From contig JAVZBY010000001.1 of the NCBI GenBank assembly GCA_038874655.1, forward strand, positions 231,094 through 295,093: a stretch of DNA of 64,000 bases, read 5' to 3'. The notes under the pieces are model-generated. The model was given only the letters and a program-made list of their open reading frames with translations. It searched no databases and was not told the origin of the DNA. Every line of letters starts with the position of its first letter. Within the stretch, counting starts at the first letter, position 1. Positions 48,750 through 51,360 of the stretch are shown here, one piece after another. A program made the translations under genes and the position numbers. The stretch is from Candidatus Woesearchaeota archaeon (GTDB lineage: Archaea > Nanobdellota > Nanobdellia > Woesearchaeales > GW2011-AR15).

Positions 48750-49451
48750 TTATCTACCAAATCTTCTTCTTCTTTTGGAATATTCTTCTAAACAATAGAT
48801 AAAATCTTGTTTTTCAATTTCAGGCCACATTTTTTCAATAAAAATAAATTCACTATATGCAGATTGAAAACTTAAAAAATTTGAGAGTCTTTTTTCACCT
48901 CCAGTTCTTATAATTAAATCAGGTTCAGAATCTAAATAAAGATGTTTTCTAAATATTTTTTCATTTATTTTTTTTATATCTATCTCTCCTTTTTTAATTT
49001 TTTCAGCAATCTTTAAAGTTGCGTCAATAACTTCTTCTTGGCCTCCATAAGCCATAGCAAAATTGATTATATATCTTTTATGATTTTTAGTTTTTTCCAT
49101 AATGTCTATTATTTTTTTTTGAACCTTTTTTGGAAACATCCATATTCTGCCAATGACATTTATTCTTATTTTATTTTCATAAATTCTTTTATCATTTTTT
49201 AACTTTTCAAAGTTTTCTTCAAATATTTTCATTAGGTAATTAAATTCTTTTTTTGGTCTGTTAAAATTTTGTATAGAAAAAGTATATAAAGTTACTTCTT
49301 TTATTTTATATTCATGGCACCAATCTAAAACTTGTTCTAATTTTTTTGCACCCCATTCATGCCCTTTCCAAGGCTTAAGCATTAGTTTTTTAGAGAATCT
49401 TCTATTACCATCCATTATTATGCCAATATGTTTTGGCACATTTTTTATCAT
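48750..49451 (-). CDS. uppS: cis-prenyltransferase (UppS family; polyprenyl/dolichyl carrier synthesis)
   Basis: PKHIGIIMDGNRR, YTFSIQNFNRP, PDLIIRTGGEKRLSNFL. Confidence 0.97.
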   Translation of the reverse strand: MIKNVPKHIGIIMDGNRRFSKKLMLKPWKGHEWGAKKLEQVLDWCHEYKIKEVTLYTFSIQNFNRPKKEFNYLMKIFEENFEKLKNDKRIYENKIRINVIGRIWMFPKKVQKKIIDIMEKTKNHKRYIINFAMAYGGQEEVIDATLKIAEKIKKGEIDIKKINEKIFRKHLYLDSEPDLIIRTGGEKRLSNFLSFQSAYSEFIFIEKMWPEIEKQDFIYCLEEYSKRRRRFGR

Positions 49452-49584
49452 TTTATTTTAAAAAGAAATTAATATATTTAAAAACTTTTTTATAAATTTT
49501 TTATAAATCTTATTTTATATAATCTATAAGTATATTTTAATAAAATTATTATTTTTAATTTAATAATCATTTTAAAAACAAATC

Positions 49585-49592
49585 TTTATAAA
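49585..49592 (+). promoter_or_regulatory. TATA box (TTTATAAA) with A-rich BRE-like upstream sequence for the structured RNA/dnaG transcript
   Basis: Lies about 20-28 nt upstream of where the GC-rich structured segment starts (49613). Confidence 0.55.
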
Positions 49593-49612
49593 TTATTTTT
49601 CTTTCTAATAAA

Positions 49613-49949
49613 GTTGTGCAAATGGGTCCTCTAATGAGACACCTTTGTAAGGTGGTCTATGAGTTTGAGACACTCTTGCATAATACAGCCCGCCATGAGA
49701 GTACCCAATGGAGCTCACGATGCAATCAAGCAATGAGCTTGGGGGTTAGTGTTGCGGGCGACAATGTTTATGTTTAAATGTTTATTATGATCCTAAACTA
49801 GAACAAGTATTATTATCCTTTATCAATATTTATTAGGATTTATTAAGAGACTTGTTCTAGATAGCACAACATAAGAAAATGGCATTCCTACTATCCTTTA
49901 TTTTTTTTAAATACATATTTTTGGTAGATGCTTTTCTTTATGTTGGGCT
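49613..49949 (+). ncRNA. Unassigned structured RNA (about 340 nt, four stem domains) upstream of dnaG
   Basis: About 49% GC in 49613-49760 (hand count) against AT-rich flanks; stems GTGCAA/TTGCAT, AGACACCTT/AAGGTGGTCT, GCCCGC/GCGGGC, GAGCTCA/TGAGCTT, CTAGAACAAGT/ACTTGTTCTAG, AGCACAACATAAGAAAA/TTTTCTTTATGTTGGGCT. Confidence 0.7.
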
Positions 49950-50001
49950 TATTTAGTATTTAAAAAATAAATACAAAATTAATTAAATTGGAGGCGAGAT
50001 T

Positions 50002-51360
50002 ATGGGGAAAATAAGCCCTGTTTCAGCTAAATATATTATACATGCAAGTATTACAATAGATGGTGTAGTTGATAAACCAGATGTAATTGGTGCTATTTTT
50101 GGGCAAACCGAGGGTTTATTAGGTTCTGAGCTTGAATTAAGAGAATTACAGAGATCAGGTAGAATAGGCAGAATTGAAGTAGAAACAGAAACAAAATCAG
50201 GAAAAACAAAAGGAATGATAATTATACCAAGTAGTTTAGATAAAGCAGAAACAGCAATAGTTGGAGCAGCTTTGGAGATAATTCAAAGAATTGGGCCATG
50301 TAATGCAAAGATAGAAGTTCAAAATATAGAAGATGTTAGAATTTCTAAAAGAAATTTTGTTATAGAGAGAGCAAAAGAATTATTAAGAAAAATGATGGAT
50401 ACTGTAATGCCAGATTCACAAGAATTGGCTGATGAAGTTGCATATTCTGTTAGAGTAATGGAAATTCAAGAGTATGGTAAATCAAGATTACCTGCAGGGC
50501 CTGCAATAGAAGAATCTGATGAAGTTATTGTTGTAGAAGGAAGAGCTGATGTTTTAAATTTATTAAAACATGGATTTAAGAATGCTATAGCTATAAATGG
50601 AACTTCTGTCCCTGAAGAAATTGTAGATTTAGGGAAAAGAAAGGTTTTAACTGCTTTTGTAGATGGTGATAGAGGAGGAACTTTAATAGTTCAGGAATTA
50701 ATGAGTGTTACTGAGATTGATTATGTTGCAAGGGCACCAGATGGAAAAGAAGTAGAAGAATTAACAAAGAAGGAAATACATAAAGCATTAAGAAGTAGAA
50801 TAGCAACAGAGCAATTAAAGTTAGAGAGTAATGAGCAAGAAAAACAGGAAAAGCAAGAAAAGTATGAATTTGTGAAGAAAGAGTCAAAAGAAACATATAA
50901 GCCAGAATTTAAAGAAATTAAACCTGAGCAGAATAAATCTGAACAGAAGCAGGATTTTAAGCAAGACAAAAAGGTTTTTGTTAAAACAAGTTCACAAGTT
51001 CAAACAACAACACAGCAAAATATGCAACCACAAAGGGAAATACAAAAACCAAAAGAAAAGTCTTTATCTGAAAGAGAAAAAAAGGTTTTTAGTGAAATGT
51101 TAGAAGATTTAATTGGCACAAGAGGAGCTTATATATTAGATAACAACTTGGAAATACTAGGTAAAGTGCCTATCTCGGAATTAATATCAACATTGAATTC
51201 ATTAAATACAAATCTATATGCTGTTATTTTTGATGGTGTTATTGATAAAGAGATTTTAGCAGCAGCAGAAAAAGCAAATGTTAGTTATTTAATTGCAATG
51301 GATAACAAAGTAAAAAATAAATTGTCCAAGGTTGAACAACTAACAGTTGAAGACTTTTAA
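50002..51360 (+). CDS. dnaG: Archaeal DnaG (TOPRIM; primase-like, exosome-associated RNA-binding protein)
   Basis: [45 protein letters not shown]; GGAGG RBS at 49990. Confidence 0.96.

Follow-up and report, generated by a model that had tools for sequence, protein, structure and literature searches.

A predicted box H/ACA guide RNA and a conserved leader upstream of dnaG in Woesearchaeota

A predicted two-hairpin H/ACA guide RNA upstream of dnaG

In a 64,000-nucleotide (nt) stretch of a Candidatus Woesearchaeota archaeon genome (hereafter the window, meaning the whole stretch that was analyzed), the plus-strand segment 49613-49766, upstream of the gene for archaeal DnaG, has the sequence features of a two-hairpin archaeal box H/ACA guide small RNA (sRNA) of about 154 nt, which would direct pseudouridylation of the large rRNA; we put the probability of this reading at about 0.88. 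The initial annotation had taken 49613-49949 for a single unassigned structured RNA of about 340 nt, possibly a cis-regulatory leader. Part of that view stands, as conserved, plus-strand structured RNA does occupy the region between the putative promoter and dnaG. However, this is not one RNA: its GC-rich 154 nt are assignable to a known class, that of the archaeal box H/ACA guide sRNAs, and only 49798-49949 is retained as a candidate cis-acting dnaG leader, for which the earlier idea of binding by DnaG itself is speculative. What is new is the assignment of targets, a usable covariance model, the phylum-wide linkage of the guide RNA to dnaG, and the conserved leader. Woesearchaeota and their relatives would thereby gain an annotated H/ACA guide RNA, and we predict that even reduced genomes still use guide RNAs to pseudouridylate helix 69 and the ribosomal A loop. 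Helix 69 is the most conserved pseudouridine site in ribosomes.

The four stem domains proposed earlier were recovered at their places (49613-49684, 49688-49759, 49798-49860, and 49863-49949), and both halves of the region folded better than shuffled sequences: 49613-49765 gave -53.1 kcal/mol (z = -2.91) and 49766-49960 gave -40.1 kcal/mol (z = -3.43), with 0/200 shuffles as good in each case. The first two domains make up the predicted guide RNA. Hairpin 1 with its hinge box (49613-49687), delineated by the fold, an alignment of relatives, covariation, and an rRNA match, comprises a lower stem (49613-49620 with 49677-49684), the 5' guide strand AAUGGGU (49621-49627), an upper stem (49629-49634 with 49664-49669), the GA dinucleotides of a kink-turn (K-turn) at 49636-49637 and 49661-49662 with a 3-nt bulge, an apical stem-loop (49638-49657), the 3' guide strand ACACUCU (49670-49676), and the hinge ACA at 49685-49687. 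Hairpin 2 with the 3' box (49688-49766), delineated by alignment, covariation, a covariance model, and a match to helix 69, has a lower stem of 49688-49693 with 49754-49759, extended across a 2-nt bulge by 49694-49696 with 49749-49751; the 5' guide strand GAGAGU(A), of which GAGAGU lies at 49697-49702; an upper stem (49704-49708 with 49739-49743); K-turn GA dinucleotides at 49711-49712 and 49735-49736; a 3-bp apical mini-stem (49719-49721 with 49725-49727); the 3' pocket strand GGUUA (49744-49748); and ACA at 49761-49763, with the RNA's 3' end predicted about 3 nt further on. All of these elements are on the plus strand.

Both hairpins possess the lower stem, pocket internal loop, and upper stem of an H/ACA motif, and in the window an ACA (ANA) immediately follows each lower stem. 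In both, tandem GA stands on both strands past a 6-position upper stem, in agreement with the archaeal rule that the K-turn or K-loop lies 5 to 6 positions above the pocket and the target uridine 14 to 16 nt from the box (PMC7991803). The 3-nt bulge and the C-stem of the K-turns were read from the sequence, and the L7Ae sites are predicted.

Rfam at gathering score gave 0 matches over the whole window. A permissive scan of 49400-50100 (701 nt) returned a weak match to RF00064 (HgcG/Pab40) at 49548-49768 (17.4 bits, E = 0.014); its other result, a chance miRNA match, was dismissed. Because the best subthreshold match is an H/ACA family, the sequence was read as two consecutive archaeal H/ACA motifs. 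The expectation that no Rfam family would claim the region was therefore correct at the gathering score, but the nearest family below it already pointed to the H/ACA class.

According to the proposed mechanism, the guide RNA would probably be transcribed from the TATA box at 49585; L7Ae would bind the K-turn of each hairpin, and Cbf5-Nop10 would bind the lower stem and the ACA box. Both strands of the internal loop would pair with the large-subunit (LSU) rRNA, leaving one uridine unpaired in the Cbf5 active site for conversion to pseudouridine. The same genome encodes Cbf5 (TIGR00425, 427.9 bits, with DKCLD, TruB_N, TruB_C_2, and PUA domains), and both Nop10 and L7Ae. The TATA-box-like element itself, TTTATAAA at 49585-49592 on the plus strand, stands where the initial annotation had placed it, 28 nt 5' of G49613, the predicted 5' end of the RNA. 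Of the 21 loci with hairpin 1, 18 have a TATA-like hexamer whose start lies at -27 to -33 relative to it and 2 have one at -37 or -38; the remaining locus has none. A promoter role for this element is suggested by its sequence.

Covariation and distribution of the guide RNA

When 60 relatives of the same order were searched by BLAST, about 45 contained a match to the stretch with E < 1e-4. Two alignments were used, A1 for hairpin 2 (30 loci) and A2 for hairpin 1 (the 21 loci that share the window's 5' hairpin, which is different or truncated in the remaining 9 of the 30). For hairpin 1, 89.4% of the cells are paired and 11 of the 17 pairs have changed on both sides; the covariation score was reached by 0/500 shuffles, and sliding the partner by 1 to 3 columns left 30 to 46% paired. 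The corresponding values for hairpin 2 are 91.9% paired cells, 10 of 21 pairs changed on both sides, 0/500 shuffles, and 13 to 41% pairing with slid partners. Little or no variation is seen in the pocket strands and the GA dinucleotides, in contrast to the stems, which vary; the 3' box is ACA in 27 of 30 loci (AAA in 1, CCA in 2). Comparison with relatives bears out the structural part of the initial annotation, in that stems 1 and 2 covary (21 and 30 sequences, respectively) and stems 3 and 4 are conserved in relatives.

A covariance model of hairpin 2, termed R1, places the window's hairpin 2 exactly; of 151 genomes sampled from across the phylum, 141 each yielded exactly one match. R1 could serve to annotate the gene phylum-wide, where Rfam now finds nothing. 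At the six loci from other orders that were inspected (of 20 + 2 obtained), a TATA-like word stands directly 5' of hairpin 2 and there is no 5' hairpin, which suggests that the ancient core is the helix 69 guide, to which the A-loop guide was added in the window's order. In G107, a 0.49-Mb one-contig genome of the same class, the R1 match belongs to a GC-rich two-hairpin RNA with the same hairpin 2 guide strands; the pocket sequences of its 5' hairpin differ, which points to another target.

Six loci from more distant families (L019, L023, L025, L027, L029, and L030) carry a 5' hairpin with other pockets, e.g., AAAGAAGCC; because the pocket sequences differ, this hairpin probably has another target there. 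At one further locus (L026), the 5' hairpin has shrunk to about 40 nt, without upper stem or K-turn.

Predicted rRNA targets

Because neither 16S nor 23S rRNA was found assembled in the window's own 97%-complete genome, targets were read in the rRNAs of four relatives, comprising the LSU sequences L031-L034 (from G035, G010, G016, and G044) and the small-subunit (SSU) sequences L035-L038. The guide strands of hairpin 1 match a site common to all four LSU rRNAs, GGGGUGU-UC-ACCCAUU, with 7+7 bp, the UN dinucleotide unpaired, and both duplexes flush with the stems. When this geometry was fixed and no mismatch allowed, each LSU rRNA contained a single match (4/4) and the four SSU rRNAs none; 0/1000 permuted guides equaled the four matches. 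By alignment to E. coli rrlH, the site corresponds to U2555 in the A loop (helix 92), which hairpin 1 would guide, and its distance to the ACA is 15 nt (49670-49684), within the archaeal rule of 14 to 16 nt. In all four relatives (L031-L034), the A-loop hairpin reads GGGGG-UGUUC-ACCC, so that the closing pair sets G opposite A, versus C-G in E. coli (2551-2557). In yeast, an A-loop pseudouridine next to U2555, at E. coli position 2554, is guided by snR10.

The guide strands of hairpin 2 can pair with helix 69 (GGGAGUAAC-UAUA-ACUCUC) of each of the four LSU rRNAs, in either of two registers. In the standard register (UAGU/ACUA plus GAGAGU/ACUCUC), it is the second U of UAUA, equivalent to E. 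coli U1917, that stays unpaired; in the UNUN register (GUUA/UAAC plus GAGAGU/ACUCUC), all four letters of UAUA are unpaired, including U1915, two bases upstream. Permuted guides equaled the match in 16/1000 cases for the standard register and 1/1000 for UNUN, the latter having one extra match in one LSU rRNA. The distance to the ACA is 14 nt in the U1917 register, or 17 and 19 nt in the UNUN register, the latter beyond the 14- to 16-nt rule; 16 nt separate G49745 from the ACA. Accordingly, the predicted target of hairpin 2 is U1917 if the standard register is used, and both U1915 and U1917 if the UNUN register is.

Several observations weigh against the guide RNA assignment or its details. At the hinge, just 13 of 21 loci have ACA (UCA in 4, CCA in 4), so that this box is looser than the ANA consensus, and the target match of hairpin 2 is short (4+6 bp). 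The target sites come from the rRNAs of relatives, in which the guide strands are invariant, the window's own rRNA being unassembled. No mapped archaeal pseudouridine at the U2555 equivalent was found in the literature searched. A search of the genome with PF04410 found no Gar1; the same model also failed to detect it in Sulfolobus acidocaldarius, one of four control archaea. Among the sequencing runs containing the stretch there was no RNA run, the four runs being DNA from hot-spring metagenomes. Finally, a TATA-like word stands right 3' of the ACA box in many loci, and a separate promoter for dnaG is possible on that account.

Comparison with known H/ACA RNAs

The closest architectural parallel is the single 159-nt H/ACA sRNA of Nanoarchaeum equitans, whose two K-turn hairpins are linked by ACA alone (Randau 2012, PMC3491384). 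Both RNAs come from the same phylum, occur as one H/ACA sRNA per genome, and measure about 155 to 160 nt, and in both there is a K-turn in each hairpin, an ACA-only joint, no proper H box, and a TATA-type promoter (PMC3491384). In N. equitans, the gene is flanked by one for tyrosyl-tRNA synthetase and by a hypothetical gene, and it is terminated by a T-stretch of its own (PMC3491384), whereas the window-type gene is fixed upstream of dnaG and mostly lacks a terminator. On this comparison, the window RNA is the Woesearchaeota counterpart of the N. equitans RNA, homologous in architecture.

In function, the parallel is with sR-h45 of Haloferax volcanii, a double stem-loop H/ACA RNA like the one described here, whose second stem-loop makes both helix 69 pseudouridines with UNUN unpaired, 17 and 19 nt from the ACA (PMC7075261). 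Hairpin 2 shows the same UNUN pairing and the same 17- and 19-nt distances. The 5' stem-loop of sR-h45 acts on a domain V uridine, H. volcanii U2605, close to the peptidyl transferase loop, through an ordinary UN pocket 15 nt from the box (PMC7075261); that of the window RNA is predicted to use the same kind of pocket at the same distance, but on U2555 of the A loop. Unlike sR-h45, in which the linker is 56 nt, the window RNA has a linker of 3 nt, the ACA only, and sR-h45 is not reported to adjoin dnaG (PMC7075261). An Rfam-type search detected no sequence similarity between the two. The window RNA is, by this comparison, functionally parallel to sR-h45, its targets being predicted.

As in the HgcG/Pab40 family (RF00064), the K-turn hairpins of the window RNA follow one another, an ACA stands after each, and the lower stem of the matched motif is of the GCCCG type, but Pab40 of Pyrococcus has three motifs and other targets (PMC2377435); with 17.4 bits, where the gathering score is 77, the window RNA is not a member of that family. 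The helix 69 pseudouridines of eukaryotes are also H/ACA guided, by human U19 and yeast snR191, yet these guides lack a K-turn, contain an H box, and serve each of the two helix 69 sites from a pocket of its own (PMC7075261). No description of H/ACA RNAs in Woesearchaeota was found in the literature searched, the coverage of which was limited.

Linkage of the guide RNA to dnaG

In all 30 loci, dnaG starts 90 to 567 nt 3' of the guide RNA on the same strand, and of 50 further loci, 48 likewise have dnaG next on the same strand (19 of the 20 from other orders); 7 of these 50 come from genomes that the first 30 already cover. A run of five or more T residues occurs within 30 nt after the box in just 2 of the 30 dnaG-linked loci, and in 14 of the 30 there is none anywhere before dnaG. 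This same-strand synteny and the scarcity of T-runs make cotranscription likely. In several loci, moreover, only about 10 nt separate the ACA from hairpin 3, the first leader hairpin, which leaves no room there for a promoter. The simplest reading of these sequences is that the guide RNA and dnaG are likely cotranscribed from the guide RNA promoter; the guide RNA would then most likely be the first part of the dnaG primary transcript, and the AU-rich hairpins at 49798-49949 would be the dnaG leader left once the guide RNA is released. The less ordinary part of our findings is this phylum-wide tie, by way of a conserved leader, between a modification guide RNA and dnaG, the gene of an RNA-binding exosome subunit. 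Cotranscription, if it occurs, would make this a clear example from archaea of an mRNA whose 5' part contains a guide RNA, and a candidate for feedback between RNA processing and the expression of a processing factor.

There are two exceptions. In G107, the guide RNA ends in T5 and dnaG lies elsewhere; that dnaG (L101, 1252-3414, minus strand) is 21 nt downstream of a gene for a Nop-domain protein (Nop5/56/58 type, of the C/D box ribonucleoprotein [RNP]), so that dnaG is again beside a guide RNP component. In G118, no dnaG follows the H/ACA locus (L062), and dnaG stands at the start of contig C17 (L097) with its leader hairpins intact, likely because of an assembly break. The H/ACA locus of G118 also contains a partial tandem repeat spanning the junction of the two hairpins.

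At six loci (L010, L015, L016, L019, L021, and L023), GC-richer inserts of 50 to 300 nt lie between the ACA box and hairpin 3. Some have stems of their own and GA-rich bulges, and the inserts could be further small RNAs or extra H/ACA motifs.

The AU-rich leader of dnaG

Hairpin 3 (49798-49860, plus strand) has the perfect 11-bp stem that the initial annotation had described (CUAGAACAAGU/ACUUGUUCUAG) and a 41-nt AU-rich loop, and it is single copy in the genome. Its 3' strand (CUUGUUCU) is nearly invariant in relatives, while the 5' partner drifts between A and G (AGAACAAG, AGGACAAG, AGGGCAAG, AGAACAGG). These changes keep G-U pairs that would be A-C mismatches on the opposite strand, so that only the plus strand fits, in line with the earlier reading of the G-U pairs. 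Covariation is also seen where the stem is extended. Of 72 dnaG leaders scanned across the class, 48 contain CUUGUUC(U) together with a partner able to pair with it (at least 7 of 8 pairs), and in other orders hairpin 3 ends 14 to 45 nt before the dnaG ATG, just 5' of the Shine-Dalgarno (SD) sequence. Hairpin 4 (49863-49949, plus strand) is a long imperfect stem (AGCACAACAUAAGAAAA ... CUUUUCUUUAUGUUGGGCU) with a pyrimidine-rich loop. It is present mainly in the window's own family, and 10 relatives share a consensus 11-bp stem with 3 pairs changed on both sides; a loose hairpin 4 pattern gave one unrelated match in the genome, on contig C15. Both loops are rich in UCAUCA/UUCAC-type words, and UCAY occurs 2.85 times per 100 nt in the leaders versus 1.03 in the upstream flanks.

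Two assignments of the leader to known RNA classes were rejected. Hairpins 3 and 4 are not further H/ACA motifs, because they lack a K-turn and a conserved ACA. As for a C/D box RNA, no arrangement of C and D boxes was seen by eye on either strand, and UGAY is depleted on the plus strand. The SD sequence of dnaG (GGAGG at 49990-49994, plus strand, recognized by its sequence and found in 27 of 30 leaders) was not seen to be sequestered by the leader in these 30 loci, with a mean z of +0.14 and z < -2 in only 2. A riboswitch-like switch is unlikely for this leader.

It is possible, at somewhat less than even odds, that hairpin 4 (taken as 49863-49956) mainly holds a translated upstream open reading frame (uORF) for a leader peptide of about 20 to 25 codons, predicted as M[F/I/L][I/T]x[S/T]F.... 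In the window, the candidate is a 25-codon frame, MAFLLSFIFFKYIFLVDAFLYVGLI, inside hairpin 4 at 49879-49956 on the plus strand. Its translation, at the same odds, would open the stem and influence translation of dnaG. In 19 of 30 leaders, an ATG-started frame of 14 to 27 codons is present, whereas the other two frames average 11 and 9.7 codons, and in many loci an SD-like AAGGAG, AAGAGG, or AAGAAGG stands 5 to 10 nt before the ATG; L014 and L020 lack both the SD-like motif and the ATG. The frame recurs in the leaders of G092 and G118, and the "SF" pair is kept by synonymous codons, mostly UCAUUC, and UCCUUU in the window's genus. On the other hand, the frame is absent from 11 of the 30 leaders, with ACG or AUA at the ATG position in several, and the window's own frame has no usable SD sequence. 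The census was limited to open reading frames (ORFs) of at least 10 codons, a selection that biases ORF lengths and under which the mean near 21 codons is close to the chance expectation. Reading frames differ over the conserved GGGCUU tail, so that conservation there is at the nucleotide level, and UCAUCA-type words likewise fill hairpin 3's loop, which contains no ATG.

Compatible with the uORF, and somewhat unlikely though a serious candidate, is a role of the hairpins at 49798-49949 in processing or stability, by which they would mark the site at which the guide RNA is cut off from the dnaG mRNA, or shield the 5' end that the mRNA thereby gains. With the same reserve, the CUUGUUCU strand and the UCAY-rich loops may be protein sites, for the DnaG-exosome or a KH-domain protein, through which dnaG could be fed back upon. 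The preference of KH domains for YCAY is known from eukaryotic Nova. The near invariance of the CUUGUUCU strand against a drifting partner, the UCAY enrichment, and the rarity of T-runs between the guide RNA and dnaG all agree with such a role. The leader also travels with dnaG across the class, even where there is no H/ACA match (G092) or where the H/ACA locus is on another contig (G118), although the hairpins are absent in some loci and L018 has neither. Two adjacent RNase PH genes supply the exosome core in this genome, and DnaG, as a subunit of the exosome, binds RNA, stable RNA included; however, the preference reported for it is poly(A), not UCAY (PMC4227792).

Given this exosome core and DnaG as its RNA-binding subunit, an exosome feedback is conceivable. 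In its fullest form, which we consider improbable, the guide RNA and dnaG would constitute one ancient Nanoarchaeota transcription unit. Its cis-acting leader, composed of hairpin 3 with the CUUGUUCU strand, the UCAY-rich loops and, in some families, a second hairpin containing a uORF, would tie the stability or the translation of the dnaG mRNA to the maturation, by the DnaG-containing exosome, of the 3' end of the H/ACA RNA. The corresponding autoregulatory loop, in which the gene of an exosome subunit would be controlled through an RNA that the exosome processes, is just as doubtful.

Two further observations concern the leader. The 5' strand of hairpin 3 (AGAACAAGUA, 49800-49808) resembles the single-stranded 3' region of the 16S rRNA of relatives (..AACAAGGUAGCC.. 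and ..GGAUCACCUCCU), and the AUCAC/AUCAU words in the loops 49809-49849 and 49880-49929 share this resemblance (SSU L035-L038). It may be due to chance, and the leader might also work by mimicking the 16S rRNA 3' region. In G092, where R1 has no match, the dnaG leader (L098) keeps a long hairpin, a UCAY-rich loop, an SD-like GGGGGAG, and a 25-codon ORF, and a tRNA-like gene lies on the opposite strand just upstream of it.

Readings of the region as a whole

Turning to the region as a whole, it is very unlikely that 49613-49949 is one novel cis-regulatory leader, riboswitch-like or operated by a protein, in which alternative folds control dnaG. All four domains do lie between one promoter and dnaG, syntenic in 30/30 loci, and both halves fold better than shuffles. 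The alternative pairing of 49613-49619 with 49864-49870 that the initial annotation had proposed does exist as 7 bp in the window, but it amounts to only 3 to 6 bp in 12 other loci, where it is not above shuffles, shows no covariation, and does not follow the changes in the hairpin 1 stem; we have abandoned it. Domains 1 and 2 agree with the H/ACA definition and have rRNA target matches, the same hairpin 2 forms an independent T5-terminated gene in G107 with dnaG elsewhere, and, as described above, the dnaG SD sequence is not sequestered. A small protein-coding gene, for which ORFs at 49616-49777 (plus strand, 53 amino acids) and 49605-49733 (minus strand, 42 amino acids) are both open, can practically be dismissed, since relatives vary at paired, compensating positions while the invariant blocks are loop strands, which is not a codon pattern, and since insertions or deletions of 1 to 2 nt are frequent in the apical parts and the start codon of the plus-strand ORF falls within the lower stem.

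Genomic setting

The H/ACA guide RNA predicted here stands out from its surroundings by composition. The 64-kb window has a GC content of 24.2%, whereas 100-nt windows give 41 to 49% for 49600-49799 and 5 to 6% for 49450-49599. As the initial annotation had noticed, no other intergenic stretch is comparably GC rich: outside ORFs of at least 80 amino acids, 49601-49800 is the sole stretch of the window that reaches 40% GC, with a maximum of 52% (100-nt windows). A tRNA scan of the window gave no hits. The 5' neighbor is a gene for undecaprenyl diphosphate synthase on the minus strand (48750-49451). The dnaG gene occupies 50002-51360 on the plus strand, and its product, a Toprim protein, matches NCBIfam NF003108 (DNA primase DnaG) with 503 bits against a cutoff of 300 and contains Pfam Toprim domains; it is followed on the same strand by a gene for an STT3/AglB homologue. 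The closest relatives of this DnaG carry the names Candidatus Woesearchaeota archaeon or Nanoarchaeota archaeon.

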